64,000 nucleotides of DNA from Pseudomonadota bacterium (GCA_963205195.1 CAUJHR010000023.1:89054-153053); one strand, 5' to 3'. Shown: positions 9,373 to 58,548, counted from the first letter of the stretch. Program-made: numbers and translations. The notes: a model not told the origin generated them from the sequence alone.

Positions 9373-9725
9373 TGCTTACAATGCTTTATAGCAAATTACA
9401 CCGTGCGCGTGTTACGCATAGTGAGCTTAGCTACAATGGCTCAATCGGTATTGATAAAGAATGGCTCACTGCTACCGGGATAAGGGTAGGGCAGCAGGTG
9501 GATGTGCTTAATGTAAATAACGGCGAGCGCTTTACAACTTACGCAATCGAAGAACCGGCTGGCAGTAAGCATATCGGCATATATGGCGCGGCGGCTCATC
9601 TTGCAGATCCAGGCGATGTAATGATTATAATTTCTTACGCGCACATGACGCCTGAAGAAGCCGGGAGCTTTAAACCAAAAGTACTTTTCTTTGACGAGCA
9701 TAATAACGTGGTGGAAAATGTCTGA
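9369..9725 (+). CDS. panD: Aspartate 1-decarboxylase proenzyme
   Basis: 118 aa. MLYSKLHRARVTHSELSYNGSIGID contains the Gly-Ser self-cleavage site. Its start overlaps the phzF-like stop (ATGA). Confidence 0.9.
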   Translation: MMLTMLYSKLHRARVTHSELSYNGSIGIDKEWLTATGIRVGQQVDVLNVNNGERFTTYAIEEPAGSKHIGIYGAAAHLADPGDVMIIISYAHMTPEEAGSFKPKVLFFDEHNNVVENV

Positions 9726-9811
9726 CCCTATTACTGTCATGCCGGTGAATACTGGCATCCATCTTTCTATGCACTTGATACCATCCCCATTTGGTATGGC
9801 AAGGAGTCTGC

Positions 9812-11953
9812 ATGGCTGACCTGCTGCTGGAACTTTTTTCGGAAGAAATACCTGCGCGGATGCAGCAGGCGGCGCTTGAGCATCTGCAGGCAGGCCTGCA
9901 CAAGGCACTGGGCGTTTCCGTAAGTGAAGGCTTTGTCACACCGCGCCGCCTTGCACTAATAATAAGGGATTTGCCTGAAATCCAGCCTGATATAAACACT
10001 GAACTTAAAGGGCCGAAAACTTCCGCGCCGGAAGCTGCGCTTGCTGGATTTTTAAAGAAAAACAACCTGACGCTTGAACAATTGGAAGATCGCGGCGGGG
10101 TATATTTTGCAACCGTCTATGAAAAAGGCAAGCCAACTGCGGAAATTTTACAGGCCGTAATAGTAGAGATACTGGAAAAATTCCCGTGGCCTAAATCGAT
10201 GCGCTGGGGAAGCGGATCGGCAATTTGGGTTCGCCCACTGCAAAGCATATTATGTATTTTTGACGGAAAAATAGTGCCGGTTGAATTTGCTGGTATCAAG
10301 GCCGGAAATATTACTTATGGCCATCGTTTCCTGGCGCCGCAGCCTATGATAATCCATAAGGTTGGGGAATACGAAAAATCGCTTGATAAATCTTTCGTAA
10401 TTGCCAGCCGTGATAAGCGCAAATCCGAGATAAGTAAACAGGCCCAGGAAATTGCAGCCGCCCATAACCTTATTGTAAAAAAAGATGATGCGCTTCTTGA
10501 AGAAGTAGTAGGGCTGGTTGAATTTCCAATGCTGCTGCTTGGGAAAATTGACGATAAATTCATGGATTTGCCCCCCGAAGTTTTGACTATGGTTATGCGT
10601 TCGCACCAGAAATATTTTGCTCTACAAAATAGCGATGGCAGCCTTTCTTCGCATTTCCTGATTACGGCGAATATGCAGGCTGAAGATAATGGGAAAGCAA
10701 TAATAGCTGGTAATGAGCGTGTTCTGCGCGCCCGTTTTGCCGATGCGCGTTTTTTCTGGGACACTGACCGTAAAAAACCACTTTCTGAGTGGGCGGAAGG
10801 CCTGAAAACCGTAACATATCATGCTAAGCTCGGCACTGTTGCCGATAAGGTGGAGCGTATCAATTCGCTCGCGCTAAAACTGAGTGATTATATCAAGGCC
10901 GATAAAAAATTAATAGGACGTGCCTGCGAGCTTTGCAAGGCGGACCTTGTTACTGGCATGGTCGGTGAATTTGCCGAACTGCAAGGAATAATGGGGCGCT
11001 ATTATGCTATGCAGCAAAAAGAATCGCATGAAGTTGCCGATGCTATTCGTGACCATTATAAACCAGCTGGTGCAGGTGATAATCTGCCTGTTGGGGAAAT
11101 AGGAATATGTATCGCGCTGGCTGATAAAATTGATACTATAGTTTCAATGTTTGCTATCGGTGAAAAGCCGACTGGGAGCAAAGATCCGTTTGCCCTGCGC
11201 CGTGCCGCTATCGGCATTATACGGATAATATTGGAAAATGGGCTGCGCCTTCCTCTTAAAAGCCTGTTCCTTTGCCCGCAGATACGAGTTGTTGCCCTGC
11301 ATAAGGCTCATGATAAACTTGTGAAAAAAACTGAGGAAAAGCTGAATGAGCCGCATAAAATAGGAAAATACCTAAGCGTTAGCGAAACTGCTTACGAAGA
11401 TATAGCTGAAGATGCAGCTGAAAAACTCTGCCTGGATATTTTCTCTTTTATAATAGATCGCCTTAAGGTGCAGCTTAAAGATTCTGGAATCCGCCATGAT
11501 GTTATTGATGCTGTTACAGCAAATGGTGATGATGATCTTGTACGCATAGTAAAATTTGCAAAAGAGCTGCAATCGCTTATCGCCTCAGAACAGGGGAAAA
11601 AATTATTATTAGTTTATAATCGCTCCAATAGTATTGTGGTAGCAGAAGAGAAAAAAGATAAAATCTCTTACAATAATCCGGTAAATGAATCTGCTTTAAC
11701 TGCTGAGGAGGAAAAAAACCTCTATAAAGCGATAGAAAATATAGTTTCTGCTGTTAATCAGGCCTTAAAGCAAGAATCGTTTGGCGATTTAATGGAAATG
11801 ATAGACAGAATTAGGCCATATTTAGAAACCTTCTTTGATAAATTGATGGTTAATGATTCTGATTCAGAAATTAGATCTAATAGGCTATGTTTATTATCAT
11901 CATTTTGCCGGACTTTAAATAAAGTTGCCGATTTCTCAAAGATTGAAGGATAA
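9812..11953 (+). CDS. glyS: Glycine--tRNA ligase beta subunit
   Basis: MADLLLELFSEEIPARMQ is the canonical GlyS N-terminus. ATG 9812 is preceded by AAGGAG (9801-9806). The track's TTG 9791 extension is therefore unlikely. Confidence 0.9.
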   Translation: MADLLLELFSEEIPARMQQAALEHLQAGLHKALGVSVSEGFVTPRRLALIIRDLPEIQPDINTELKGPKTSAPEAALAGFLKKNNLTLEQLEDRGGVYFATVYEKGKPTAEILQAVIVEILEKFPWPKSMRWGSGSAIWVRPLQSILCIFDGKIVPVEFAGIKAGNITYGHRFLAPQPMIIHKVGEYEKSLDKSFVIASRDKRKSEISKQAQEIAAAHNLIVKKDDALLEEVVGLVEFPMLLLGKIDDKFMDLPPEVLTMVMRSHQKYFALQNSDGSLSSHFLITANMQAEDNGKAIIAGNERVLRARFADARFFWDTDRKKPLSEWAEGLKTVTYHAKLGTVADKVERINSLALKLSDYIKADKKLIGRACELCKADLVTGMVGEFAELQGIMGRYYAMQQKESHEVADAIRDHYKPAGAGDNLPVGEIGICIALADKIDTIVSMFAIGEKPTGSKDPFALRRAAIGIIRIILENGLRLPLKSLFLCPQIRVVALHKAHDKLVKKTEEKLNEPHKIGKYLSVSETAYEDIAEDAAEKLCLDIFSFIIDRLKVQLKDSGIRHDVIDAVTANGDDDLVRIVKFAKELQSLIASEQGKKLLLVYNRSNSIVVAEEKKDKISYNNPVNESALTAEEEKNLYKAIENIVSAVNQALKQESFGDLMEMIDRIRPYLETFFDKLMVNDSDSEIRSNRLCLLSSFCRTLNKVADFSKIEG

Positions 11954-22358: not shown

Positions 22359-22997
22359 ATGAGTGTTTTAGTTGGCAAGCAGGCCCCGGATTTTACTGCA
22401 AAAGCTGTCCTGGCTGATGGTAGTTTTGATGAAAAATTCAATCTTTACAATCATTTGGGAATCAAGAAGGATGCTTCTGGAAAAGTCACTAAAAAAGGTA
22501 AGATCGGTATATTGTTTTTCTGGCCGCTTGATTTTACTTTTGTTTGCCCATCCGAAATCATAGCTTTCAATAACAGGCTTAAAGAATTCAAGCTCCGCAA
22601 AGCAGAAGTTATCGGCATTTCAGTTGATTCTCATTTTACCCATCTGGCCTGGAAACAGGTGCCGGTTGAAAAAGGCGGTATTGGCAATGTGCAGTTCCCT
22701 ATGGTTGCCGACCTTACCAAATCCATCTCTCGTGATTATGACGTATTGCTAGGCGATGCAGTTGCTTTCCGCGGCACCTTTATGATCGATGGAAATGGGG
22801 TTGTCCGCCATCAACTGGTAAATGACCTGCCGCTTGGACGTAATGTTGACGAAGCACTGCGTATGGTTGACGCATTGCAGTTCCATGAAGAGCATGGGGA
22901 AGTTTGCCCAGCTGGTTGGCAGCGAGGCGAAGAAGGTATGAAAGCCAGTGCCGAAGGCGTGGCTAAATATTTAAAAGGTCACGCTAAGAAGCTATAA
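22359..22997 (+). CDS. Typical 2-Cys peroxiredoxin (AhpC/Tsa family)
   Basis: Peroxidatic Cys context DFTFVCPSEI and resolving Cys context GEVCPAGW. It has a Lys-rich insert (KKDASGKVTKKGK) before the first motif. Confidence 0.9.
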   Translation: MSVLVGKQAPDFTAKAVLADGSFDEKFNLYNHLGIKKDASGKVTKKGKIGILFFWPLDFTFVCPSEIIAFNNRLKEFKLRKAEVIGISVDSHFTHLAWKQVPVEKGGIGNVQFPMVADLTKSISRDYDVLLGDAVAFRGTFMIDGNGVVRHQLVNDLPLGRNVDEALRMVDALQFHEEHGEVCPAGWQRGEEGMKASAEGVAKYLKGHAKKL

Positions 22998-23000
22998 ATT

Positions 23001-23939
23001 ATGGCAAGTTATACCACTAAAGTCCTTATTATTGGGTCCGGCGCCGCAGGTTGCACAGCATCTATCTATGCGGCCCGCGCCGGGCTTAACCCTATCATGG
23101 TGCATGGGTTGCAGCCCGGCGGCCAGCTTACAATAACTTCTGATGTTGAAAATTACCCAGGCTTTGAACATGCTGTTCAAGGCCCTTGGCTAATGGAGCA
23201 GATGGAAAAGCAGGCTGCCCATGTAGGCACAAAAATTTTCCATGATACAATAATGGAGGTCGATCTTTCCAAGCGTCCCTTTATCGCAAAGGGCGAATCT
23301 GGTGATGAATATATTAGCGATACCCTTGTAATCGCAACTGGCGCATCGGCGCGCTGGTTGGGGCTGGAAAGCGAAAAGAAATTTTCCGGCTTCGGTGTTT
23401 CTGCCTGCGCGACCTGTGATGGATTCTTTTTCAAGAACAAAGAGGTCGTGGTGATAGGCGGCGGCAATAGCGCAGTAGAAGAAGCGCTTTACCTTGCTAA
23501 CATCGCTTCGAAAGTTACCCTTATCCACCGCCGTGATTCTTTGCGTGCGGAAAAAATCGGTCAGGAGAGGCTGTTTGCGAATCCGAAAGTTTCGGTTATC
23601 TGGGATAGCGCGGTAGAAGAGTTTTTAGGCACGGAAGAGCCAAATTCACTTACCGCAGTGCGTATAAAAAATTTAAAAACCGGTGCGATCTCGGAAGTGA
23701 AAACTGATGGTGCATTTGTTGCAATCGGGCATTCACCGAATACCGAACTTTTCAAAGATGCTATCACGCTCGATAAAGATAACTATATCCAGACCACACC
23801 CGGCAGCACTAAAACCAATATAGAAGGTGTCTTCGCAGCCGGTGATGTACAGGATAAAATATTCAGGCAGGCGGTAACCGCAGCCGGAACGGGTTGTATG
23901 GCGGCGCTTGAAGCTGAGCGTTTTTTAAGCGGTCATTAA
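23001..23939 (+). CDS. trxB: Thioredoxin-disulfide reductase
   Basis: 312 aa. FAD motif IIGSGAAG, redox-active CATCDG, NADPH motif VIGGGNSAVEEA. Confidence 0.95.
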   Translation: MASYTTKVLIIGSGAAGCTASIYAARAGLNPIMVHGLQPGGQLTITSDVENYPGFEHAVQGPWLMEQMEKQAAHVGTKIFHDTIMEVDLSKRPFIAKGESGDEYISDTLVIATGASARWLGLESEKKFSGFGVSACATCDGFFFKNKEVVVIGGGNSAVEEALYLANIASKVTLIHRRDSLRAEKIGQERLFANPKVSVIWDSAVEEFLGTEEPNSLTAVRIKNLKTGAISEVKTDGAFVAIGHSPNTELFKDAITLDKDNYIQTTPGSTKTNIEGVFAAGDVQDKIFRQAVTAAGTGCMAALEAERFLSGH

Positions 23940-41963: not shown

Positions 41964-42079
41964 CGTTTTATAAGGGCTGTATTAAATCAAATTAACTTGC
42001 TTTTGCCGAATTATTACTTAGACTTCCGCCAAAATACAAGGTTTATTTGATTTTTCAAAGTGTAGCATTCATCATATTT

Positions 42080-43666
42080 ATGGAAAAAATAAAATTAGCG
42101 GTTATCGGTTGTGGTTACTGGGGCAAGAACCTGGTGCGTAATATGTCAGAATTAGGGGTTCTGGCGGCAGTTGTTGATAACCATTTGCCTACAGCCTCAG
42201 CTATTGCAAAAACATATAATGTGCTCCCAAAAAGCTTTGAAGAAATATTGAATGATAAGGAAATTGTAGCAGTTGTAATTGCTTCTTCAGCAGTTGCACA
42301 TGCTCCTATAGCTAAGGCATCTCTGCATGCCGGGAAGCATGTTTTTGTTGAAAAGCCGTTAGCATTGGATATGGCTGATGCGAAAGATCTTTGCACGCTT
42401 GCAAATGAAAAAAAACTTACACTTATGGTTGGGCATTTGCTGCAATACCATCCTGCGTTCATTGCTTTGTTTCAGGCGGTCAAAGCAGGCCAAATTGGTA
42501 AGCTTCGCTATATCCAGTCGCACCGCTTGAGCTTTGGCAAGATTCGTACTGAAGAAAATGTATTATGGAGTTTTGCGCCCCATGATATTTCCATGATACT
42601 TGCATTGGCAGGCAGCTCCCCGGAAATAGTTTCAGCTCAGGCGGCCACGCAGGTAACGCAGCATGTTGCTGATATTGCAACCTTGCATCTAAGTTTTGCT
42701 GATAACCTCAAGGCTCATATAATGGTATCCTGGCTGCATCCGGTAAAGGAGCATAGGCTTACTGTAATAGGTGAGAAGGGGGCGCTGGTTTTTGATGACA
42801 GCCTGCCTTGGGAACAGAAATTAACCCTGCATAAGAATAATATTGTTTTAAAAGATGGAAATCCAGTGGCAGAAAAAGGCGAAATCACTCCAATTGCTCT
42901 CAAGCAAGATGAACCTCTTAAAGCTGAATGTGAGCATTTTTTAAATGCAATTAAAAATAATTCTCCTGTGCGAACTGATGCTGATGAAGGTATACGTGTA
43001 CTGGAAACACTGGTTGCTGCTGAAAAATCACTTAAGCAAAAACGGGAAATACAAATGGCAGAAACGGAAAAAGATTATTTCGTACATGAAACAGCTATTG
43101 TTGATAAAGGATGCGAAATTGGTGCTGGCAGCAAAATATGGCATTTCAGCCATATATTATCCGGAACTAAAATTGGCAGCCAGGTTATAGTCGGCCAGAA
43201 TGTTATGATAGGGCCTAATGTTACGGTTGGCAATCGCTGTAAGATACAAAACAATGTCAGCCTTTATAAAGGCGTAATACTTGAAGAAGGCGTGTTCTGC
43301 GGGCCATCTTGTGTATTTACCAATGTAAATACCCCGCGCGCAGAAATTGAACGCAAGGAAGAATTCCTGACCACTCCAGTTGGCAGGGGGGCTACAATTG
43401 GTGCGAATGCTACAATTGTCTGCGGAAATTCCATAGGTGAATATTGTTTGATTGGCGCTGGGGCAGTAGTTACTAAAAATGTGAAGCCGCATGCGCTTAT
43501 GGTAGGGAATCCTGCAAAGCAGATTGGTTGGGTAAGCCATGCCGGGGACCGTTTAGGAAAGGATCTTACCTGTCCGCGTGAGAACCGCCGCTACCGGGAA
43601 AATGCTGACGGCAATCTGGAAGAAATAATGGAAAATAATAAAAATGAAAAAATCTGTGCAGCCTAA
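42080..43666 (+). CDS. Fusion protein: Gfo/Idh/MocA oxidoreductase (WbpB/WlbA-like) + left-handed beta-helix N-acetyltransferase (WbpD/WlbB-like)
   Basis: N-terminal Rossmann [14 protein letters not shown]. The C-terminal ~190 aa are hexapeptide repeats ([49 protein letters not shown]). I prefer ATG 42080 over the track's TTG 42047. Confidence 0.8.
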
Positions 43667-47556: not shown

Positions 47557-48462
47557 ATGCAGTCAACTGCTAATAATAATATTAACAAGCCTGATTTTAC
47601 TGCATGGTTTGTCCTTCAGGGCATTATAGCCACAATGCATCTTAGGGGGTATGCCGGCGATTATCCTGAAAGATCGCTGGAGCTCTATCGAATTCTGGCG
47701 CGTGAAGCAGGCAAAACACGACTTATATCTAAAGTAATAGAATGTTTGCCATACACGCTACAATATAAAATAGGCGAGCTGGTAACAAATAAAGGCAGGC
47801 TAAGGCATTTTTATCTACGAAAAAAAGAAATCGAAAAAAATGCAAGAAAACTGATCGATGAGCATGCGATTGAGCAAATAATTGTTTTAGGTGCCGGGCT
47901 AGATATATTGGCTTTGCGCTTATCAAGTGAATTTCCACAGATGCGCTTTATTGAAATTGATATGGAAGAATCCCAGCGCTTCAAGGAAGCCGCGCTTTTT
48001 GCACATAATATAAAAATACCAGCTAATATGGAGCTTCTATCGGCAGATTTACGCGAGAAATTCAGCTCTATCCTATCTGCATCACGCTTATATAAGCCAG
48101 GATTAAAGACATTGTGGATAGCAGAAGGCCTGTTCATGTTTATACCTGAGGTCAATGTTCCGGCTATATTCACTCAAATAAAGGAAAATTGTGCCGCTGG
48201 CTCATATTTTGTTTTTACGACACTTGCACCTAAAGGCCAGGGAAGTGCTGTGACAAAAATCATACAAGATTTATTTCTGAGTAGGGAAAAAACTGCCTAC
48301 CACTGGACTATTTTTCCCGAATTAGTACCTGATTATATACAAAAATTTGGATTTAAATTGATGGAGCAAATTAATTGTCATCTGTTACACAAAAACCACA
48401 TAGGGGATAAATTTGATATAAATCATAAGATTGGAGATGACATCCACATAGCGAAAATGTAA
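47557..48462 (+). CDS. SAM-dependent methyltransferase of the Ppm1/LCMT/TcmP (leucine carboxyl methyltransferase) family
   Basis: 301 aa. IIVLGAGLDILALRL, RFIEIDMEESQRFK and TLWIAEGLFMFIPE follow the family pattern (LGAGxDTRxxRL ... E(V/I)D ... ptl.iaEG...Yl). Confidence 0.8.
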   Translation: MQSTANNNINKPDFTAWFVLQGIIATMHLRGYAGDYPERSLELYRILAREAGKTRLISKVIECLPYTLQYKIGELVTNKGRLRHFYLRKKEIEKNARKLIDEHAIEQIIVLGAGLDILALRLSSEFPQMRFIEIDMEESQRFKEAALFAHNIKIPANMELLSADLREKFSSILSASRLYKPGLKTLWIAEGLFMFIPEVNVPAIFTQIKENCAAGSYFVFTTLAPKGQGSAVTKIIQDLFLSREKTAYHWTIFPELVPDYIQKFGFKLMEQINCHLLHKNHIGDKFDINHKIGDDIHIAKM

Positions 48463-48559
48463 GTATGGCTTGCTGAATATAATTTTTCCGCAAATATTTT
48501 GTTGCTTTTGTTAATAATTACTAATATTTGGTTAATATCAAATTATAGGATTAACGATT

Positions 48560-49312
48560 ATGCCTAAGCCAATTATAGAAAATACTGCGGAAAAAGAAAA
48601 TCAGACTGAGATTCAATCCACAAATAATTTTATGGTTGCATTGCAATCTGCAATTACCCGCCGCTTGCTTAAGCCTTACAGCAAAAATGAACCTGTTGTT
48701 TATGAATTTACGCAAGACCGTGCAATGTTGCACCAATATTTCCGTCTGCGTTCCATAATGTACGATAAGGTTTTCAAGGTTGATGGTTATAATTGGGGCG
48801 AAGATTTTTACGATAAGATCGGGCATATCCTTATAGCGCGCCGTGGCAATCTTTGTCTGGGCGGTTGCCGCCTTATAATCCGCGAAGGTGACGAAGCATG
48901 GCCTATGCCTATGGAAAGTGATGAATTCAACCTGCGTAAAACTTTTGCCGATCTGCCGCTTGATAAAGTAAGGCATGCTGAAATTTCACGTTTTGCTGTT
49001 ATGGAAGATTGCGGTGAAAGCAATATTTTTGGCGAATTATGCAAAATAGTATATGATAAGGTAACCACCTCCGATATCCATTACTTGTTTGTAAAATCTC
49101 CATACCGCATGGCTAGGAGCTGGAGGTTCATTGCAAATAATTTTGGTGTTAAGACCACTCGTATTATTGAAGGGGTGCATCCGGTGGATAATACATTATC
49201 CCCTGATATTAAATGGTACTTGATACTTTCCGACCTTACCGCATTCTGCCGTGATACAGTTACTGACGGCAAGAGGATATTAATTAATAATATGTCAGAA
49301 GCTATAAACTAA
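48560..49312 (+). CDS. LuxI/FeeM-like N-acyltransferase (acyl-homoserine-lactone synthase / N-acyl amino acid synthase fold)
   Basis: 250 aa. Blocks YFRLRSIMYDKVF, WGEDFYDKIGHILIA (ExDxFD-like), GGCRLI and EISRFAV mirror the conserved LuxI-family/NAS blocks. I cannot separate AHL synthase, NAS and OlsB-like GNAT families by eye. Confidence 0.6.
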   Translation: MPKPIIENTAEKENQTEIQSTNNFMVALQSAITRRLLKPYSKNEPVVYEFTQDRAMLHQYFRLRSIMYDKVFKVDGYNWGEDFYDKIGHILIARRGNLCLGGCRLIIREGDEAWPMPMESDEFNLRKTFADLPLDKVRHAEISRFAVMEDCGESNIFGELCKIVYDKVTTSDIHYLFVKSPYRMARSWRFIANNFGVKTTRIIEGVHPVDNTLSPDIKWYLILSDLTAFCRDTVTDGKRILINNMSEAIN

Positions 49313-49314
49313 TA

Positions 49315-50724
49315 TCAAGGCAATTCAGGATTGGCTCTTGATACGCGGTCTATCTCAACCATAAGTGGTTTTTTGAGTTTTAGGGAAATTCCAGGCTTTA
49401 AGCCATTATCAAGTTTGTTTAATGCTGTAACAGTAAAAAGTGGAAGCAGCTTAGCAATAATAGTTTTAGCTTCCATATCCACAAACATATAGCCGCTGCA
49501 TTTCCTGCCGCCATGCAGGAATGGAAAATAAATCCCTTCGTCAATTTTATTCTCATTTTCTGGCAGGAAACGCTCAGGAATAAAGCTATTAGGGTTATTC
49601 CAGTATTTAGGATGGCGGTGCATGCCTAATTGGGAAATTATAATAGTTGCGCCTTTTTTTACTTTGAAATCACCAAAATTATCTTCATCAACAGCTTCCC
49701 TGCCCGTCATCCAGAATGGCGGGTAAAGCCTCATGGTTTCTTTCAAAACCAAATTTATGTAATCCATTTTCTTAATTTCTTCAAATGTAAGTTTGCTACT
49801 ATCATCAGTGGTAGTGCAGGGGGCATTTTTTATAATATCTTCATATAGTTTGGTCCTTACATCTGCATATTCATCCATTAAAAACCATATCCATTGCATG
49901 AGGATTGAGGTTGTTTCAAAGCCAGCGAATACCATGCTTACAGCATGATCGCGTATATCTTTTTCAGTAAAGTTTTTCGGGTCATTTTTCTGTGCTTCAA
50001 TAAGTAGGGAAAGCATATTATATTTATCATTAAGCCCGCTGCTTCTATATTGCTCACTTAGTGATTTAATATGTGCATCAATATTATTGAGTTCTTTTTT
50101 AAAACTGAAATAAGCTGGGTGACAAAATATTTTACGAAGGTCTACATTATATATAATGCGAATAGACATTAAGTATTTGATTAATACGTTATAAGAATGA
50201 TGAAGAGAATTTATCGTTTCATCACTTATATTATTTCCAAATATTGAGCGCAAAATAACTTCGGTAGTTATTTTCGCCATTTCTTCAGTTATATTTAGTT
50301 TGAATTTTCCATTTTGCGTCAATTTAAACCAGCGCTGCTTATATTTTTCAGTGACTATATTTACAACATCGAAATAATAACCGGCGATTTGTTCACGGTT
50401 GAACATGGGCTGTATTTTTTGCCGGTCGCGTTTCCATTTATCGCCATTACTGGTAAGAAGGCCTAATCCAATAGCTGATTCAAAGCGGATATAAGGCTTG
50501 CTTTTTTTATAATTTCGTTGGTTCTCAATAAATATTTTTTTAACAATATCAGGATGATTAACTTGAAGAACCTGTTGGCCAAGAATATCGAATGTAACTA
50601 AATCTGCACCACATTGCGTTACATCCATTACAAAGCCTGATGGATTTTTTATAGCAGGGATTAAAAAGCCAAGAACCGGAGTTCCTTTAAGCCTGCTTAC
50701 GCTATAATTTTTTATATCCGCCAT
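49315..50724 (-). CDS. Cytochrome P450 monooxygenase (CYP102/CYP4-like features)
   Basis: 469 aa. I-helix VFAGFETTS, K-helix ETMRLYPP, PERF, and the heme-thiolate loop FLHGGRKCSG (FxxGxRxCxG). It has no N-terminal membrane anchor, and no redox partner is fused or adjacent. Confidence 0.9.
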   Translation of the reverse strand: MADIKNYSVSRLKGTPVLGFLIPAIKNPSGFVMDVTQCGADLVTFDILGQQVLQVNHPDIVKKIFIENQRNYKKSKPYIRFESAIGLGLLTSNGDKWKRDRQKIQPMFNREQIAGYYFDVVNIVTEKYKQRWFKLTQNGKFKLNITEEMAKITTEVILRSIFGNNISDETINSLHHSYNVLIKYLMSIRIIYNVDLRKIFCHPAYFSFKKELNNIDAHIKSLSEQYRSSGLNDKYNMLSLLIEAQKNDPKNFTEKDIRDHAVSMVFAGFETTSILMQWIWFLMDEYADVRTKLYEDIIKNAPCTTTDDSSKLTFEEIKKMDYINLVLKETMRLYPPFWMTGREAVDEDNFGDFKVKKGATIIISQLGMHRHPKYWNNPNSFIPERFLPENENKIDEGIYFPFLHGGRKCSGYMFVDMEAKTIIAKLLPLFTVTALNKLDNGLKPGISLKLKKPLMVEIDRVSRANPELP

Positions 50725-50788
50725 ATTAATAATAAAATCAATGATGTTTAAACCATTTTATATATTCAGCTTATTCTGGGCGCAAGGA

Positions 50789-50878
50789 AATTAATCTAAT
50801 TAAAATAATTAGTTAATCTAATTTTAACTTTATCAGGTTATGACATTATGGTTGCTTTGTAATTTGCTTAGATTAATT
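50789..50878. promoter_or_regulatory. Repeated operator-like motif TTAATCTAA in the P450/TonB-receptor divergent promoter
   Basis: TTAATCTAATT occurs at 50791-50801 and 50813-50823 (direct, 22-bp period). An inverted copy TTAGATTAA lies within 50868-50878. There is also a 7-bp inverted repeat, CTAATTA-aaa-TAATTAG, at 50796-50812. Confidence 0.45.
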
Positions 50879-50900
50879 GAATAGCTGTTAAATATTTTTT

Positions 50901-52898
50901 ATGTCCAAGGCTAATATATATAAGTTATTTATGATCAGCATGGCGCTGCTGCCTAAGACAGCGCTTGCGGCAAATGATGTTTCCGATGCGGAAATTAAAA
51001 AAGTGCTCAGCATGTCTTTAGCTGAACTTACTAATGTTAAAGTTACCTCGGTTTCTAAAAAATCTGAGCCGGAAAATGAAGCGCCCGCCGCTATATTTGT
51101 AATTACCCAGGAAGATATACGGCGCTCCGGTGCAACTACTATCCCAGAAACCCTGCGTATGGCTCCGGGAATTGTTGTAACACAGTCGGGTTCTAATAAC
51201 TGGACAGTTAGCGCACGTGGTTTTAATGACCAGTTTTCTAACAAGCTTTTAGTGCTTATTGACGGCAGGACTATTTATTCTCCTTTATTTTCAGGGGTTA
51301 TATGGGACTCGCAAGATACGATGCTGGAAGATATAGAGCGTATTGAAGTTATCCGCGGGCCAGGTGCTACATTATGGGGCGCAAACGCGGTAAATGGCGT
51401 TATCAATATTATAACCAAGAATTCCAAGGATACCCAGGGAGGCTTGGCTACTGCTGAATATGGTAACCAGCTTGGTATAGCCAGTGTGCGTTACGGTGTA
51501 AAAGTTGGAAATGACAGCTATATTCGTACCTACGCTAAGTATAATGATTATGCTTCCCAGCGCTATACTAACGGAACTGATGCTAATGATTCATGGCGTA
51601 AACAGCAGGCTGGGTTCCGTAGTGACCTTAAAATATCTGATAGCGGTAAGCTTAAAATACAAGGCGATATATATGCCAGTGATGAAGATAACTCCTATAT
51701 ATTCCCAGATTTAGCTTCCCCAACCTATTATAATTCTTCAAAAGGCTTGAAAGCTGGCGGCGGAAACTTATTAATGCGTTGGGAAGAAAAATTAAGCTCA
51801 ATATCAGAAACATCGCTGCAGGCTTATTTTGATAATGCCTCTAGAAAAACATACTTTTTTAATGATATAGCTAATACTGTTGATATTGAATTCCAGCATG
51901 TCTGGACCGGTTGGGAGAGGCAGGAATTAATCTGGGGTGCGGGCTACCGCTTTATAAATGATAAGAACGATCCAAGCGCACAATATGCCCTGACACCATC
52001 AACAAGGAATGACAGTATTTATAATGCTTTCTTGCAGGATAAATTCACCTTGATACCAGAAAGCGTATTCTTGACGCTTGGTTCCAAATTCGAGCATAAT
52101 GAATATTCAGGATTCGAGGTCCAGCCTAGTGCCAGGATTTCATGGCTGCCCGACCATACCCAGACTGTTTGGGCTTCGGTTTCGCGCGCCGTGCATACAC
52201 CAAGCCGCTTTGATTCAGATGGGCGTTTATCATACCTGATCGACCCTCCCACCATCTCAATACCGCTGCCGGTATTATACACAGCAGCGCCTAATAAAAA
52301 GGCGGATGCTGAGGATTTGATAGCTTATGAGCTTGGCTATCGTATACAGCCTGTTAAATCCCTGTCTATTGATGTTACTACGTTCTATAATAGGTATAAT
52401 AACCTGCTGCAAGACGTGGTTGGCGATCCTACCATATTTGTTGACTATATAAGCCAGCCTATCACTGTTGAAAATATAAACAAAGCGCACTCATTTGGTT
52501 TTGAAAGCTCAGTCAAATATAATGTTTCCCCTTCATGGCAGCTTGCAGGAACATATAGCTATATCGATTTGAAATTCGATGATAAGGCACAGGTAGGATT
52601 ATTCTTTGTAGGCAAACACCCAAAAAATATGTTTAACCTGCGCTCAACTTATCTATTCCCGAACCGCGTTGAAATGACTAATTCGCTTTATACTATGTCT
52701 GAATTAAGCAGTATAAATGTTCCCGGCTATTACCGGTTTGATACTAAACTTTCCTACCCTGTTACCGATTCAATCAGCGTAAGTTTGGTTGGGCAGAACC
52801 TGCTTGATGAACGCCATAAGGAATTTACACCATTCCTATACCAGCGGCAGACTGAAATAGGCCGCAGTGTATATGCCGGCGTATCCTTTAAGTTCTAA
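50901..52898 (+). CDS. TonB-dependent outer-membrane receptor
   Basis: Signal peptide (...LLPKTALAANDV). Plug-domain blocks IFVITQEDIRRSGATTIPETLRMAPGIVV and ERIEVIRGPGATLWGANAVNGVINIITK. The beta-barrel ends in YAGVSFKF. Confidence 0.9.
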   Translation: MSKANIYKLFMISMALLPKTALAANDVSDAEIKKVLSMSLAELTNVKVTSVSKKSEPENEAPAAIFVITQEDIRRSGATTIPETLRMAPGIVVTQSGSNNWTVSARGFNDQFSNKLLVLIDGRTIYSPLFSGVIWDSQDTMLEDIERIEVIRGPGATLWGANAVNGVINIITKNSKDTQGGLATAEYGNQLGIASVRYGVKVGNDSYIRTYAKYNDYASQRYTNGTDANDSWRKQQAGFRSDLKISDSGKLKIQGDIYASDEDNSYIFPDLASPTYYNSSKGLKAGGGNLLMRWEEKLSSISETSLQAYFDNASRKTYFFNDIANTVDIEFQHVWTGWERQELIWGAGYRFINDKNDPSAQYALTPSTRNDSIYNAFLQDKFTLIPESVFLTLGSKFEHNEYSGFEVQPSARISWLPDHTQTVWASVSRAVHTPSRFDSDGRLSYLIDPPTISIPLPVLYTAAPNKKADAEDLIAYELGYRIQPVKSLSIDVTTFYNRYNNLLQDVVGDPTIFVDYISQPITVENINKAHSFGFESSVKYNVSPSWQLAGTYSYIDLKFDDKAQVGLFFVGKHPKNMFNLRSTYLFPNRVEMTNSLYTMSELSSINVPGYYRFDTKLSYPVTDSISVSLVGQNLLDERHKEFTPFLYQRQTEIGRSVYAGVSFKF

Positions 52899-53081: not shown

Positions 53082-55406
53082 TTAATTTCTAAGCGGCTTG
53101 CCGGTTTGCAGCATATGCTCAATGCGGGCGATGGTGCCTTTGGTCTTTACTAATTCCATGAAACCTGCCAATTCCAGATCCAGAAGCTGCTGCTCGCTTA
53201 TGCTGTCAGAAATATCAGTATTGCCACCGCTTAGAACCTGTGCCAATACGCGTGATACTACAACGTCATGCGGTGTTGCTTTACCGGAAGCGGCAAGCCC
53301 GTCAACCGCCATGAAAAGCGCGACTTTAGCACTTTCACCGGGCAGGTTTATTGTTTGCGGATCTGGAGGAGTATATCCATCAGTAAGCGAAATAGCGCGG
53401 GCCTTGGCATCAGCCAGAACCCTTGTACGGTTCATGCTTACAGCATCAGTTTCACGGATTATTTTAAGGTCACGTGCTTCAAGGGCTGAACCAGCAGTTT
53501 TTGCAGTGCCGATCATTTCAAAAACCTTGCTTACTGTTGGCATAGCATTTGCCGGATTATTAGTGTCCATATGCCTAAACAGCATTTCCTTGCAGCCACC
53601 CCATGCCGGAATCAGCCCAACCCCAACTTCAACAAGCCCAGGATAGGATTCCATATGTGCTTGTACAGCATTGGAATGCAGCACAATTTCACAGCCGCCT
53701 CCGAGTGCCATTCCAGCAAGGGATGACACAACCGGGAAAGGAGAATATTTAAGCGCCATCATCGCATGCTGCCCGGCTTTGATTACATCCTCGATCTGTT
53801 TCCATGCAGCAACATTTGCGGCCATCAACATGAAGCCAAGATTTGCCCCAACCGAGAAATTATCAGCATCGTTGCCTATTACCAGCCCGCGAAAATCTTT
53901 TTTCACTAAAGCTACTGTTTGTTCAATAAGCGATAAAATATCAGGGTCAACCGAATTCATTTTTGAGGTAAGTTCCAGACATGCTATGCCATCCCCCATA
54001 TCCCACAAACTTGCCGAACCATTCTTAAGAACAGGCTTTTTTGATAGCTTGATGTTGCCAAGCATAAGCGTTCCTGATGGCGGGATGATTGGCTTATAGG
54101 TACCATCAATTTTAAGGGCAGCATTCTCACCACCAGCTTGGGAGTAAAGAGTTTTACCTGCAGCCTTTGCAAGAACAGGTGGAATTTCCTTATTCATTGA
54201 ACGAAGGGCTTTTATAAAATTATCTACCCCGATTTTATCGATCATTTCGAATGGGCCATATTTCCAGCTATAACCAAGCTTCATGGCAGTATCGACTGCA
54301 TAAATATCATCAGATATTTCAGGAATTAAAGAAGCGGCGTAATGCAGGGTTCCGCCAAGTACGCTTGCGGCATATTGCCCGCCAATATCAGGATGTGTAA
54401 GCAATGCGCCCAAGCCTGCCTTTGCTGCCTCAACGCTTGCCAGCTCCACCTTGACGGCAACTGGCTTATACTCCCCAGTCTTTAGGTCGATAACTTCTTT
54501 TACTTTTTTATCTGCCTGCTTGTTCATTCGGTAAAAGCCACCTTTACCCTTGCGGCCTGTATAGCCGTCGGCAATCATTTTTTTGACCAGCTCAGGCTCC
54601 TGGTATAATTGCCTGAAAGCATCATTTGCTGGAAGGGTGGCAAGCATAGCCTTGGCAATAAGAGGCATAAGGTCTATACCGATAAGATCGAATAGGCCAA
54701 ATATTCCTGTGCTGGGCATGCCAGCGGGTTTTCCCATAACAGCGTCAGCCTGTTGTGGAGAAATGCCAAGGCGCATGGCTTCGATAAGCCCCAGCATCAT
54801 CCAGTATACACCAATACGGTTAGCTATGAATCCCGGTGTATCTTTGCAATGAACTATGCTTTTTCCCAGTTTTATATCGGCGAACTGCTCAATAGCTGAA
54901 ACAACTTCTGGCTTGGTATGCTCGGTTGCAGCGACTTCAAGCAGGCGCATGAAGCGTGGAGGATTAAAGAAGTGGGTTATTATGAAATCCTGCTTGAAAG
55001 CATCAGGAAAACCATCGGTAAGTGTTTTAAGTGGTAAAGTTGAGGTATTAGATGAAACAACACTTTCCTTTTTACGAACCGAATTGATCTTACGGTAAAC
55101 ATCCTGTTTTACATCCAGCTTTTCCAATACTGCTTCAATTATCCAGTCGCAATCGGCAAGCATGTCAAGGTTATCTTCCAGATTCCCGCAGGTAACCATT
55201 TTTGCAACCTTGGGATGGGCAAAACCAGGAGGCTTAGCTGAAAGCTGCTTTTCCACTGCTTTTTCACAAAGCACGTTACGGCTTTCCGCGCCGGGAGGAA
55301 CTATATCAAGCAATATAACCGGAGTTCCGCTTGCCGCAATATGTGCTGCTATACCACTACCCATAACTCCCGAACCAATAACCGCAATTTTTTTGATATT
55401 TGCCAT
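53082..55406 (-). CDS. Bifunctional 3-hydroxyacyl-CoA dehydrogenase / enoyl-CoA hydratase (FadN-type domain order)
   Basis: 774 aa. N-terminal Rossmann IAVIGSGVMGSGIAAHIA with 3HCDH blocks, and a C-terminal crotonase fold (FSVGANLGFML...MALGGGCEIVLH). Confidence 0.9.
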   Translation of the reverse strand: MANIKKIAVIGSGVMGSGIAAHIAASGTPVILLDIVPPGAESRNVLCEKAVEKQLSAKPPGFAHPKVAKMVTCGNLEDNLDMLADCDWIIEAVLEKLDVKQDVYRKINSVRKKESVVSSNTSTLPLKTLTDGFPDAFKQDFIITHFFNPPRFMRLLEVAATEHTKPEVVSAIEQFADIKLGKSIVHCKDTPGFIANRIGVYWMMLGLIEAMRLGISPQQADAVMGKPAGMPSTGIFGLFDLIGIDLMPLIAKAMLATLPANDAFRQLYQEPELVKKMIADGYTGRKGKGGFYRMNKQADKKVKEVIDLKTGEYKPVAVKVELASVEAAKAGLGALLTHPDIGGQYAASVLGGTLHYAASLIPEISDDIYAVDTAMKLGYSWKYGPFEMIDKIGVDNFIKALRSMNKEIPPVLAKAAGKTLYSQAGGENAALKIDGTYKPIIPPSGTLMLGNIKLSKKPVLKNGSASLWDMGDGIACLELTSKMNSVDPDILSLIEQTVALVKKDFRGLVIGNDADNFSVGANLGFMLMAANVAAWKQIEDVIKAGQHAMMALKYSPFPVVSSLAGMALGGGCEIVLHSNAVQAHMESYPGLVEVGVGLIPAWGGCKEMLFRHMDTNNPANAMPTVSKVFEMIGTAKTAGSALEARDLKIIRETDAVSMNRTRVLADAKARAISLTDGYTPPDPQTINLPGESAKVALFMAVDGLAASGKATPHDVVVSRVLAQVLSGGNTDISDSISEQQLLDLELAGFMELVKTKGTIARIEHMLQTGKPLRN

Positions 55407-55482
55407 TTGTAAAATTCCTTTAATGATGAGACGGATGGGGAGTTAATTTATCAATTATAACATAATATATCATATATTTAAA

Positions 55483-58400
55483 TTATTTAGTGGCAGTAGT
55501 AGCTTCTGCAGCCGTATTTGCAGCAGGAGCAGGGGAATTTGCAGGAAGCAATATATGCGCTTTATAATTCTCGATAAAACTACGCGTATTATTAATATAC
55601 TGTATTACCTCATCAAAGTTTCTCGAGTTCGGATCTATATCTGAAGAAGTAACAAATTCAAAAACCTTTCGGTTAGGGCTATTTGCCATAAGCGGCCCAA
55701 AATAATCCCTTAAATATTGCAATTGCTCCTTATTATCCGTAAATACATAGGCAAGGGCAAGTTTTATTAAATATTCGCTTTCATCGAGTGTTACAGCTGC
55801 GGTTATATCCTGCCTTGCTTTTAATATATTTTCTACACTTGCAGTAAGTTTATCCCAATCCTTGGCTTTCCAATATATGCTAAGGCGAATACTTTCTGCC
55901 TCTGTGCTGTCATCCTGTCCCAGAGTCTGCATTGCCATATCCGGTTTACCCATATCAACCATTGCCTGTGCTGCCAGGCGATTCCGAGTAAGCCTTAATG
56001 TGGCTTGATTTTCTCCATATACAGAATCTTGAAGGGCCAGAAGTGTTTTTTGCGGCTGGTGGTTTAGAAGATATATTCCTGCAAGTTTAGCTCCTATCTG
56101 ACTGCGCTTTTCTTTCTCTGTCTGTGTACGCATCTGGTGGTCAAGAAGCCCTGCGGCCTGTTCCAGCAGATCAACAGAAACAAGCCTGTCCGCAAGCCTG
56201 TCTACCATCTCGCTTCCGGCAGTTCCATTCGGCATATAATTCCGGTATTCATAATAAAGTGCAAGTGCCTCTAGAGGTGGAAGTTTATCGGCAACCCCTT
56301 CGTTAAACATAATAATGAACACCTCTTCCATTTTATGGGCCATTTCTATGGCTGCCGCAGTATTTTTAAAAGCCTGAACCCCATTATTCCATACACGCAT
56401 GGCGTTTACATAGTCTTTACGCTCATTGTAAAGTTCTCCAAGCAATGTAAGAACGGTAAGCTCTAAATTATCCCCGTGCCAGCTAAGGCGCAGGCGCTCA
56501 AGTCTGTCTATGGCTTTATCTTTTTCCAAACCTGCATCCATATCGCGGGCGATGCGTGTAAATTCAGCGCGGGCTTTGACAAATGGATGCTTATAATCTT
56601 CAGCTATCTTATCGAGATTTTCTGTAGCTTCTTTTTGCTGCCCTGTGCTTAAGGAAATTTTTGCCATCAGGAAATTTATATATACATTTATCGAATCAAG
56701 CAGATTATCTTGATGTAGTGAATCAAAGATTTTTAGCGCTATGTTATAATCTTTGTTTGCAATAGACCTGTCTGCTGCAACTATAGCAAGGCGCTGCCGG
56801 AAAACAGGAGGGTACTTACTTATATAATCATCATTCATTGCAAGATAATCATAAGTTTGGCCGGTATTACCCAAAAGGTCGGCAAGTACTGCCCGCCAAT
56901 ATTCAATTTCCTTGTTGTTGTTCAATTCTGTTGCTGAAAAGTCTTTCGCAGATTCTATAAAGCGCGCCATAAGGAAATTAGCAGCTCCATGCAGGGCATT
57001 TAATTTTGCAGTTCTATAAAAAGCTGGATTGGAACGGTTTATTCCGTCAAGAAGGGCATTGGCCTCAGGCGCCAGGCCTTCACTTAAATATAATTTGGCT
57101 AGTTTAAGCCTTGCATTATTAGCATCCTGCGTATTATCGGTTTCCACGATCTGGTGGAACATTGATTGTATTTGTTTCTGCCGGGTTTCAGTAATATTGG
57201 CCTTCCATATTTCATAAGGAAATAAAGTTGGGTTGGCCTGTACGCCGTCATTTACATTTTTAATATCTATTTTAGGAAGGTCTGGTGAAATGGTTGCACC
57301 TTTTCCTGAGGTTATACGCAATCCGTTCCTGAGTTGTAAAACTGAAATATCATCTGCCTTTTTAACAAGCGCTATGCCTTGCGTTGTTTCCAGTAGATCA
57401 AATTCTATAAATTCACGCTTATGAGTAACCCCTTCGCCGATCTTGAATAATGGAGTAATTATGATTTCGTCACCGATTATCGGGTCGCGTATAGTAAGGG
57501 GATCTGCCATTTCCAAAGTTGAAATCAGTACATGCGGCGGTGCAGGGGGACCAGTACTTACTTCTACAGGGAGCGAAATTGCTATGGGCTGTTTTTTCTG
57601 GGTTATAAGTACCGCAACATTATTGCTATTTTCTTCCTTAAGGACGCTAGTATAAACATTATCGTCTATAGGCATGTAAAGTATGGTAGCCTTTGGATTA
57701 GCTATAAGTTCTGGTTTGCCGACCACTGTTTTTTCCATCTCTTCGAATTCTGAAAGGTCAAGCTTTAGATTTTTATCCAGCACTATCCATAAATGGTGGT
57801 TGCGGTTAAATACAGAGAATGCTGTACGTTCTGCAAGCGGGAAACGTAATGTTATACTATCTTCAGCAGCTGAAACAGTGACTTTGTTGATCTGGTCACG
57901 CAAAATATTATCAACATCTGCAGGGTGTGCTGCGCCATCATCTGATTTTTCTATTTCTGCTTTTTTTTCTTCTGCTGCATTACCAGCGGCGGGAGCAAGC
58001 ATACCAAGGTTTTTTGCAGAATTCATAAATTTTATACGGTTATCGGCTACTTGCTTGCGGATTACCTGTGCTGCCTTTTCTGCTGCAATTTGCTCTTTGG
58101 TCGGGGTATTTGGCACAGCTTTTGCGACTTCTTTTGCTGGGGCGGGTTTTGCTGCAAATTGCAATAGTTCAATCCCGCTTATATTCTTATTTGTGAATTT
58201 ACGTATATGGTATGGCTTATCCATAGTGAGTATGACGGTCTTGCCGTCAGGCTTGCGTTCTACACTGCTTATATAAGGATATAGCTTGGAAAGTATTGCC
58301 GCCGCATCAGGCTTTGCCTTACGCTCGAAGGTTATGGTTATGGTTTTGTTTTTTGCAACAGCAGTAAATGGCACTGGTTTTTGTAATTCAAAAACAAGGC

Positions 58401-58548
58401 GTGCAACTGCATGGTTGTTTTCTATACGAGTAGCAGGAACTGCACTGCCATTAGCCGCCTGCGCGGATAGCGGCATTAATAATATTCCCGCGCATAATAA
58501 CAGGCGCGAATAATTATATATGTAAAAATCCAGACGCATCGCAACCAT
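55483..58548 (-). CDS. Large secreted protein: beta-rich N-terminal modules, Ala/Lys/Pro linker, TPR-like helical C-terminal ~600 aa
   Basis: 1021-aa ORF. Signal peptide ...LLMPLSAQA/ANG. The linker is AAKPAPAKEVAKAVPNTPTKEQIAAEKAAQ. The C-terminal region has long helical repeats. I recognise no catalytic motif. Confidence 0.6.
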   Translation of the reverse strand: MVAMRLDFYIYNYSRLLLCAGILLMPLSAQAANGSAVPATRIENNHAVARLVFELQKPVPFTAVAKNKTITITFERKAKPDAAAILSKLYPYISSVERKPDGKTVILTMDKPYHIRKFTNKNISGIELLQFAAKPAPAKEVAKAVPNTPTKEQIAAEKAAQVIRKQVADNRIKFMNSAKNLGMLAPAAGNAAEEKKAEIEKSDDGAAHPADVDNILRDQINKVTVSAAEDSITLRFPLAERTAFSVFNRNHHLWIVLDKNLKLDLSEFEEMEKTVVGKPELIANPKATILYMPIDDNVYTSVLKEENSNNVAVLITQKKQPIAISLPVEVSTGPPAPPHVLISTLEMADPLTIRDPIIGDEIIITPLFKIGEGVTHKREFIEFDLLETTQGIALVKKADDISVLQLRNGLRITSGKGATISPDLPKIDIKNVNDGVQANPTLFPYEIWKANITETRQKQIQSMFHQIVETDNTQDANNARLKLAKLYLSEGLAPEANALLDGINRSNPAFYRTAKLNALHGAANFLMARFIESAKDFSATELNNNKEIEYWRAVLADLLGNTGQTYDYLAMNDDYISKYPPVFRQRLAIVAADRSIANKDYNIALKIFDSLHQDNLLDSINVYINFLMAKISLSTGQQKEATENLDKIAEDYKHPFVKARAEFTRIARDMDAGLEKDKAIDRLERLRLSWHGDNLELTVLTLLGELYNERKDYVNAMRVWNNGVQAFKNTAAAIEMAHKMEEVFIIMFNEGVADKLPPLEALALYYEYRNYMPNGTAGSEMVDRLADRLVSVDLLEQAAGLLDHQMRTQTEKEKRSQIGAKLAGIYLLNHQPQKTLLALQDSVYGENQATLRLTRNRLAAQAMVDMGKPDMAMQTLGQDDSTEAESIRLSIYWKAKDWDKLTASVENILKARQDITAAVTLDESEYLIKLALAYVFTDNKEQLQYLRDYFGPLMANSPNRKVFEFVTSSDIDPNSRNFDEVIQYINNTRSFIENYKAHILLPANSPAPAANTAAEATTATK

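Follow-up and report, generated by a model that had tools for sequence, protein, structure and literature searches.

What do the genes around a small acyltransferase-like gene in this stretch of pseudomonadotal DNA (64,000 nucleotides, referred to as the window) make together, and which of them belong together? A preliminary description of the window had singled out three adjacent genes encoding a methyltransferase (MT), a 250-aa protein resembling N-acyl amino acid synthases (NAS-like) and a soluble cytochrome P450, and had proposed that they serve a pathway to an N-acyl amino acid methyl ester (NAME) or a signal of the N-acyl homoserine lactone (AHL) type. The trio is present, but that description ended at position 50724 and omitted the gene that follows, which encodes a TonB-dependent outer-membrane receptor; of all partners of the NAS-like gene, this one is conserved best. 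Based on a comparison of 23 distinct loci, the receptor gene is the constant partner and the MT and P450 genes are accessory. The best explanation of the locus is a four-gene module (47557-52898) comprising a synthase, tailoring genes and a receptor, rather than a trio.

Conserved partners of the NAS-like gene

The loci compared were the window, 18 GTDB representative genomes, and the loci L026, L027, L028 and L033. The receptor gene was found in 19 of the 23, adjoining or near the NAS-like gene, with products 44-87% identical to that of the window. In most cases it directly follows the NAS-like gene in the same orientation, and of the four loci lacking it, two are contig ends. The P450 gene was present in 11 loci and the MT gene in eight. 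Across the receptor-linked loci the NAS-like proteins are 32-79% identical and the flanking genes differ.

The full set of MT, NAS-like and P450 genes was identified in six of the 23 loci (the window, L001, L009, L010, L015 and L026), with NAS identity down to about 46%. The trio does recur, but it is not the conserved unit, MT and P450 being accessory and mutually independent. Locus L026, which lies on a 2.05-Mb contig and encodes a NAS-like protein 58% identical to that of the window, has the window's exact layout: the MT and NAS-like genes in one direction, the P450 gene converging on them, and then the receptor gene converging with a gene for FadB.

The three open reading frames originally described were all located at the coordinates claimed for them (Table 1). 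The MT and NAS-like genes are 97 bp apart, and the NAS-like and P450 genes converge with their stop codons separated by 2 bp. The motifs listed for them were likewise found in the translations: VLGAGLDILALRL, IEIDMEES and WIAEGLFMFI in the MT, FRLRSIMYDKVF, GEDFYDKIGHILIA, GGCRLI and EISRFAV in the NAS-like protein, and AGFETTS, ETMR, PERF and FLHGGRKCSG in the P450. The same gene order and an identical receptor protein were found on two metagenome contigs from independent assemblies (JGI 3300056625 and Logan ERR10643339), so the gene arrangement is real and no assembly artefact.

The receptor gene is divergent from the P450 gene across a 176-bp intergenic region. A block of approximately 90 nt in this region (GGTTAATCTAATTTTAACTTTATCAGGTTAT...) is nearly identical in the window and L001, and a core, AATTTTAAC, is kept in L026. 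Scans for promoter consensus sequences and terminators gave matches no commoner than in shuffled sequence, and Rfam and tRNA scans of the window revealed no RNA features. Plasmid searches with the NAS-like protein and the 3.2-kb DNA returned no relatives. In agreement with the preliminary description, no LuxR, acyl carrier protein (ACP) or ferredoxin-type partner was identified within about 10 kb to either side, based on Pfam annotation of the identical contig and Pfam scans of 24-47 kb.

Table 1. Module genes and flanking features of the window
Feature	Position	Strand	Basis or remark
AhpC and TrxR-like flavoprotein genes	22359-23939		directly upstream of the module in L026 also
O-antigen/polysaccharide gene island, ~23.6 kb	24000-47500		GC down to 0.34-0.39 at 26-32 kb
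WbpB-WbpD-like fusion, one 539-aa open reading frame	42047-43666		within the island
LCM/TcmP-family S-adenosylmethionine (SAM)-dependent methyltransferase (MT), 301 aa	47557-48462	+	PF04072, TIGR00027
FeeM-fold N-acyltransferase (NAS-like), putative N-acyl amino acid synthase, 250 aa	48560-49312	+	predicted fold
Soluble cytochrome P450, 469 aa	49315-50724	-	PF00067; heme-Cys loop intact
Divergent P450/receptor intergenic region, 176 bp	50725-50900	.	presumed shared promoter/regulatory region
TonB-dependent outer-membrane receptor, 665 aa	50901-52898	+	PF07715 + PF00593
FadB-type enzyme (774 aa), then TPR-like protein (1021 aa)	53082-58548		FadB gene converging on the receptor gene

Putative synthase and tailoring enzymes

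The 250-aa protein had no Pfam match below E = 0.01 and passed no curated model. Sub-threshold scores were obtained with PF21926 (FeeM; 13.7 bits, E = 0.055, below the gathering score of 27) and with TIGR03694, the sole NCBIfam match (19.8 bits, E = 4e-4, cutoff 111.95). No match to PF00765 (LuxI) appeared even at E <= 10, and none to PF13444 (Acetyltransf_5). Its 96 homologue clusters at 90% identity carry no functional names, the few that are named being "hypothetical protein"; they derive from metagenomes or metagenome-assembled genomes labelled Rickettsiales, Alphaproteobacteria or Pseudomonadota, and none was seen in a named cultured bacterium. When 1.84 billion representatives were searched exhaustively with a profile, 579 clusters (representatives at 50% identity) were obtained at E <= 1e-3 and 120 at E <= 1e-30. 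PF21926 was matched weakly by 25 of the 40 close relatives and 47 of the 60 distant ones (best 4.5e-9), and Acetyltransf_5 by two and 31, respectively. Among the distant relatives, 31 of 60 also matched TIGR03694 weakly and three of 60 matched PF00765 weakly (best 7.8e-6), along with a few weak matches to the TraI model.

Sequence searches of the PDB with the protein and its profile yielded spurious matches to an FF-domain protein only, and fold comparison alone was informative. A confident AlphaFold2 model based on 40 homologues (pLDDT 81.6, pTM 0.73) had as its best Foldseek match FeeM (2g0b; E = 9e-8, TM score 0.73 normalised to FeeM), followed by LasI (1ro5) and then by generic members of the GNAT superfamily; MesI and BjaI were also listed. 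The model has the GNAT-derived alpha/beta/alpha fold of the FeeM/LuxI type. Residues invariant in the family fall in the clan blocks LRxxxY, EDxYD, GGxRL (here GGCRL) and EISRFA, and the clan-wide R...Y/F and ExDxYD blocks are present in the 40-sequence alignment. In LuxI, EsaI and LasI the N-terminal SAM-binding residues include an invariant Trp. This conserved Trp is absent from the same alignment, in which the first conserved Trp is W188 and none occurs between Y68 and D82, the stretch that would hold the Trp of LuxI.

The earlier label "LuxI/FeeM-like" thus holds for the fold but finds no support for LuxI in the sequence, given the missing PF00765 match and SAM-site Trp. No curated model places the protein with OlsB or with ordinary GNATs. 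The 250-aa protein is accordingly the founder of an uncurated family within the NAS clan and is no recognised FeeM, LuxI, OlsB or exosortase-type enzyme. Tandem NAS-like paralogues were observed in L027 (500-2023) and L028 (9001-10638), which suggests two acyl/amino-acid specificities or a heteromeric enzyme.

The MT passed the curated cutoffs of PF04072 (E = 3e-25, 89.6 bits, cutoff 22.3) and TIGR00027 (95.6 bits, cutoff 93.55) and is, as first described, a methyltransferase of the LCM/TcmP/TIGR00027 family. Among solved structures, the mycobacterial proteins ML2640 and Rv0731c are closest to it. Orthologues adjoin the NAS-like gene in L001, L002, L009, L010, L015, L026 and L027; the gene is an accessory tailoring gene and, where present, always stands next to a NAS-like gene. 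Since it occurs without the P450 gene in L002 and L027, the MT needs no hydroxyl installed by the P450. Partly for this reason, its methylation site is most plausibly the free carboxylate, which would yield a methyl ester.

The P450 matched PF00067 with E = 1e-66, and its best solved matches were CYP3A4 (E = 1e-34), CYP97, CYP170A1, CYP4B1 and CYP102 (1e-21 to 1e-26). It had been called "CYP102/CYP4-like"; a clan resembling CYP3, CYP4, CYP97, CYP102 and CYP170 is appropriate, but CYP102 is too specific, as CYP3A4 scores better. Membership of CYP102 (P450 BM3), defined as at least 40% identity to members together with a diflavin reductase fusion, was rejected: the heme domains of that family rank below CYP3A4, and the protein consists of 469 aa without a reductase domain. 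The orthologues in the 11 loci are 47-82% identical and vary in position and orientation; those of L006-L008, L011 and L017 occur without the MT. The same orthogroup adjoins an OxzB-like gene in L031. The P450 encoded at L023, which lacks a NAS-like gene, was rejected as an orthologue (22% identity). The P450 gene is an accessory tailoring gene, with a single orthogroup specific to these loci.

Further tailoring genes lie beside the NAS-like or receptor gene, usually between the two or directly downstream of the receptor gene. Identified were genes for a FAD_binding_4 oxidase (L006-L008 and L011), an SRPBCC protein (L007, L008 and L010), desaturase-family enzymes (L009 and L033), a heme-oxygenase-like diiron enzyme (L017) and an OxzB-like ThiF-nitroreductase fusion of 654 aa (L014). 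The last lies between the NAS-like and receptor genes, at the position held by the P450 gene in the window. No FAD oxidase, SRPBCC or other accessory genes were detected in the window by tblastn.

Proteins of Nitrosococcus wardiae, a Rhodospirillaceae isolate and others share 43-48% full-length identity with the L014 fusion. In named proteobacteria its homologues adjoin acyltransferases of PF13444/PF21926, which is the OxzAB architecture. OxzA, TyzA and TrzA are FeeM-fold, acyl-CoA-dependent N-acyl amino acid synthases, and OxzB, TyzB/TyzC and TrzS convert N-acyl-Tyr, N-acyl-Phe and N-acyl-Trp to acyl-oxazolones (PMC10404671, PMC12856293, bioRxiv 10.1101/2020.06.11.147165). OxzA-type proteins, reached through the neighbours of OxzB homologues in named proteobacteria, were rejected as members of the NAS family, the HMMER profiles A1 and A2 giving E values of at least 0.06 (Z = 1e6) against three such proteins. 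Comparison of the NAS family with OxzA-type proteins by hhalign aligned the motif blocks at E = 0.006-0.04 and a probability of 1-6%.

In L014 the NAS family appears to fill the role of OxzA by non-orthologous replacement. Because an OxzB-like enzyme pairs with the NAS-like protein there, the product would be an N-acyl amino acid with a free carboxylate. This pairing, seen with a NAS-like gene in L014 only, is indirect but is the best available evidence for such a product. From clan membership and the OxzB-like partner we infer that the 250-aa protein forms an amide bond between an acyl thioester and an amino acid.

The same partner bears on the AHL-type product proposed at first, since it points to a free amino-acid product and no homoserine lactone. 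That the protein is a divergent orphan AHL synthase of the LuxI type, with its AHL modified by the MT and P450, is consistent with the presence of LasI, MesI and BjaI among the structural matches and with the weak PF00765 and TraI matches of distant relatives. The protein itself, however, has neither a PF00765 match nor the SAM-site Trp, and no LuxR/GerE-type gene was found within about 10 kb on either side or in the related loci. An AHL, moreover, offers an LCM-type MT no free carboxylate and is no substrate for OxzB, and yet an OxzB-like enzyme is the partner in L014. An AHL synthase is accordingly judged highly improbable.

Receptor, proposed mechanism and flanking genes

The receptor has a signal peptide and Plug and barrel domains, and lacks an STN domain. 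Against the whole length of the model NF053590 ("TOL_0244 family"), whose equivalog cutoff is 645, it scored 640.7 bits, and its family comprises at least 8000 clusters at E <= 1e-30. In L014, L015, L017 and L027 the receptor gene is followed, on the same strand and with gaps of few bases, by genes for a DUF4154 (YfiR/HmsC-like) protein and a CHASE8-HAMP-HisKA-HATPase histidine kinase. CHASE8 is the type of domain through which YfiR controls YfiN. In L027 a single strand carries two NAS-like genes and those for MT, receptor, DUF4154 protein and CHASE8 kinase, separated by 6, 6, 136, 3 and 10 bp, respectively; the intergenic gaps of few bases indicate that these genes are co-transcribed.

The same order of receptor, DUF4154 and CHASE8 kinase genes, with an additional MarR gene, was identified in L021-L023, which lack a NAS-like gene. 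A divergent desaturase-family gene lies upstream in these three loci, and a ThiF gene in L021 and the unrelated P450 gene in L023 are also present. With and without a NAS-like gene, the set spans 7001-11696 in L021, 7001-11542 in L022, 7001-11655 in L023 and 3075-7137 in L027. No published account of the receptor-DUF4154-CHASE8 triad, or of a link between a NAS and a TonB-dependent receptor, was found in the literature, two papers on YfiR and TonB-dependent receptors being of no apparent relevance; the NAS-receptor pairing is conserved and, in the literature found, unprecedented.

Our preferred reading, to which we give about even credence, is that an N-acyl amino acid is made, methylated and oxidised, and is then bound or imported by the neighbouring TonB-dependent receptor. 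The cytoplasmic 250-aa enzyme, a FeeM-fold N-acyltransferase according to its model, would join a fatty acyl thioester to an amino acid. Acyl-CoA may serve as donor, as with OxzA and TyzA; the lack of an ACP gene in the vicinity would then be explained. The adjacent MT would methylate the product, likeliest at the carboxylate, and the P450 would oxidise the lipid. The modified lipid would then exit, to be bound or imported by the receptor encoded next door. A NAME-like methyl ester is a plausible product, possibly in a hydroxylated form. In related genomes the synthase-receptor pair is kept and the tailoring enzymes are exchanged. The constancy of the pair, and the YfiR-like protein and CHASE8 kinase genes that, in a divergent subclade, follow the receptor gene in an apparent operon, suggest that the lipid, once made, is taken up again or sensed, either as a signal or as a scavenging amphiphile.

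Several observations weigh against production and recapture of such a lipid. The NAS assignment is one of remote homology, the comparison with OxzA-type proteins (E = 0.006-0.04, probability 1-6%) included. Loci L002 and L003 have complete flanks but no receptor gene, and the receptor orthogroup also occurs without a NAS-like gene (L021-L023). No YfiR-like or CHASE8 gene was detected in the 64-kb window by tblastn, and neither a redox partner for the P450 nor an exporter is encoded near the module. A neutral methyl-ester lipid has no obvious need for TonB-dependent uptake. Finally, the synteny is partly vertical within one clade, the FadB/TPR flank being common to the window, L026, L004, L005, L012 and L028.

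The genes could even be neighbours without a functional relation, sharing no pathway and held together because a narrow lineage inherited them vertically. Every locus belongs to a single alphaproteobacterial group that is poorly sampled, and the wider synteny among the window's near relatives, the two loci without a receptor gene and the uninformative promoter and terminator scans would all fit. The NAS-receptor linkage, however, survives changes of flanks, order and orientation, as well as NAS identity down to 32%; the short gaps of L027 indicate co-transcription; and the tailoring genes vary yet stay between or beside the same two genes. That the genes are unrelated in function is considered quite unlikely.

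It is also conceivable, though rather doubtful, that the product is an autoinducer derived from an N-acyl amino acid, diversified among lineages by tailoring and sensed through the receptor, the YfiR-like protein and the CHASE8 kinase. The module would then be a new kind of signalling system, acting between cells or on the producing cell itself, with perception at the outer membrane by a dedicated receptor. In such a relay the receptor would take the part of YfiB in the YfiBNR system. A siderophore or metallophore role was rejected: no nonribosomal peptide synthetase (NRPS), NRPS-independent siderophore (NIS) synthetase or hydroxamate-forming genes were identified, and carboxyl methylation would remove a metal ligand.

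Downstream of the receptor gene, the window encodes a FadB-type multifunctional beta-oxidation enzyme and a TPR-like protein. The two proteins are 68-85% identical to their counterparts in L004, L005 and L012, and both genes also flank the receptor gene in L026 and L028. They resemble housekeeping genes of a conserved flank, although FadB could instead supply acyl-CoA. In L033, a block of NAS-like, two desaturase and receptor genes is directly followed by genes for a DUF7380/EMARD_N protein and a phage-type integrase (8281-11559), which hints that this module borders a mobile element.

A different role for the module would be the uptake of a hydrophobic substrate. A long-chain nutrient such as an alkane, fatty acid or lipid would be imported by the receptor, hydroxylated by the P450 and degraded by the adjacent FadB-type enzyme, and the N-acyl amino acid would solubilise it as a biosurfactant, a property known for products of NAS enzymes. 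The receptor gene is met by a convergent FadB-like gene in the window, L004, L005, L012, L026 and L028, and desaturase/AlkB-superfamily genes (PF00487) recur beside the receptor gene. The score of the receptor against the TOL_0244 model also favours uptake, as TOL_0244 of T. oleivorans was induced 7-fold on C28 alkane and alkane uptake was proposed for it (PMC6304351). The role of TOL_0244, however, is itself a proteomics inference only. The P450 is unlike CYP153, its best matches being CYP3A4, CYP97 and CYP170, and the FadB and TPR genes are housekeeping-like, 84-85% identical and restricted to the window's near clade. Such uptake would also leave the MT, the OxzB-like enzyme and the YfiR-like/CHASE8 kinase pair without a role, and it is regarded as unlikely.

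Upstream of the module lies an island of O-antigen/polysaccharide genes. It encodes a SAM-dependent methyltransferase, Wzy, two Wzx-type flippases, GT1 and GT2 glycosyltransferases, an epimerase, an AsnB-like amidotransferase, E1 alpha and beta subunits, a WbpB-WbpD-like fusion, a WbpA-like protein, WbpE/DegT-like proteins and a Wzy_C ligase-like protein. The WbpB-WbpD-like gene is a single open reading frame in which a GFO/IDH/MocA oxidoreductase is fused to a hexapeptide-repeat acyltransferase; on the otherwise identical contig L024, this gene and that for E1 alpha were both split by the gene caller. The island sits between the TrxR-like gene and the MT gene of the module. In L026 those two genes abut, and the region of the window at 17.5-23.9 kb is collinear with the genes immediately upstream of the MT gene there. 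Since the cluster (24.0-47.5 kb) is absent from L026 and its flanks are collinear, it is an insertion that came to adjoin the module secondarily.

This bears on a reading of the 250-aa protein as an OlsB/GlsB-like enzyme of envelope aminolipid synthesis, whose lyso-aminolipid would be modified by the P450, MT and desaturases, the receptor gene being a neighbouring envelope gene. Aminolipid hydroxylation and methylation are known, ornithine lipids being modified by the hydroxylases OlsC, OlsD and OlsE and the methyltransferase OlsG. Beyond this precedent, the weak PF13444 matches of close and distant family members (2/40 and 31/60) and the adjacency of the module to lipopolysaccharide/O-antigen genes in the window, L001, L004, L005, L012 and L028 speak for it. 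The window protein itself, however, has no PF13444 match, and the O-antigen cluster is an insertion of ~23.6 kb. An OlsA/PlsC-type O-acyltransferase (PF01553) is absent from every NAS locus examined, the PF01553 genes of L021 and L031 belonging to a housekeeping SRP54/S16 block. The operon of L027 with its receptor, YfiR-like and kinase genes, and the OxzB-like partner of L014, would also go unexplained. An aminolipid is regarded as an unlikely product, and an N-acyl amino acid derivative recognised by the receptor remains the reading preferred.

Peroxiredoxin genes recur directly upstream of the module in the window, L026 (6223-7883) and L033 (1351-2510). They consist of AhpC and TrxR-like flavoprotein genes in the window and L026, and of AhpC, AhpD/CMD and LysR genes in L033. 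In the literature on tyz oxazolones, related lipids have been linked to oxidative stress. The TrxR-like flavoprotein is, speculatively, a candidate reductase for the P450.

Significance and comparison with known systems

N-acyl amino acids and their derivatives (oxazolones, NAMEs and commendamide-like lipids) are emerging as bacterial signals and bioactive lipids, for which very few receptors are known. The synthase family described here is uncurated and is currently annotated as "hypothetical". The module is a compact candidate route to methyl-esterified, oxidised N-acyl amino acids. Its unusual part is the genetically linked candidate receptor, which in sister genomes stands in one apparent operon with the YfiR-like/CHASE8 kinase pair. 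If this link is functional, lipid-amide synthesis would be tied to TonB-dependent perception, an architecture that we have not found described, and a function would be suggested for the very widespread receptor-DUF4154-CHASE8 triad. Should the autoinducer proposal be true, the module would be the first genetic route to NAME-type compounds.

FeeM, the long-chain NAS from environmental DNA (PF21926, 2g0b), is the best structural match and is similar in size and in its motif blocks, including the E-I-S-R-F-A strand. The NAS-like protein differs in having a sequence signal below the Pfam threshold and about 45 additional residues at the N-terminus. FeeM depends on an ACP and belongs to the fee cluster, whereas the module has no ACP and its partner is a TonB-dependent receptor.

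With OxzA/OxzB of Pseudoalteromonas rubra and others, and with TyzA/TyzB/TyzC and TrzA/TrzS of M. tuberculosis, the module shares a stand-alone FeeM-fold N-acyltransferase and neighbouring tailoring enzymes. In place of OxzB, however, the window has a P450 and an MT, and the NAS profile misses OxzA-type proteins. No TonB-dependent receptor is reported in the oxz/tyz literature examined.

Like the PEP-CTERM/exosortase acyltransferase (TIGR03694), the NAS-like protein is a NAS-clan enzyme tied to an envelope system by genome context. Its score is far under the cutoff of that model, and exosortase/PEP-CTERM genes are absent from all NAS loci examined.

The LuxI/LuxR systems resemble the module in fold clan, in the position of a small lipid-amide synthase gene beside a presumed receptor gene, and in the tandem synthase paralogues of L027 and L028. 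The module differs from them in lacking a PF00765 match, LuxR and the SAM-site Trp, and its presumed receptor is an outer-membrane protein, whereas LuxR-type receptors are cytoplasmic transcription factors.

The YfiBNR (TpbB) system is similar to the related loci in which a YfiR-like protein (DUF4154) and a CHASE8 sensor follow the receptor, an outer-membrane protein in both cases acting, or presumed to act, upstream of a periplasmic relay. Differences are the output, a histidine kinase rather than a diguanylate cyclase, the TonB-dependent receptor in place of the lipoprotein YfiB, and the lack of the sensor pair in the window. FecA-type cell-surface signalling is a further parallel, from which the module differs in that its receptor has no STN domain.

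NAMEs, finally, are compounds whose biosynthetic genes have not yet been identified (PMC11580390), as the preliminary description had supposed. They have been reported from the Roseobacter group, whereas the hosts of the module form a different alphaproteobacterial group outside it, and homologues are absent from the plasmids searched. The likeness lies in the genes themselves: a NAS-like gene beside one for a carboxyl-type methyltransferase is the smallest gene set that would make sense for a NAME.

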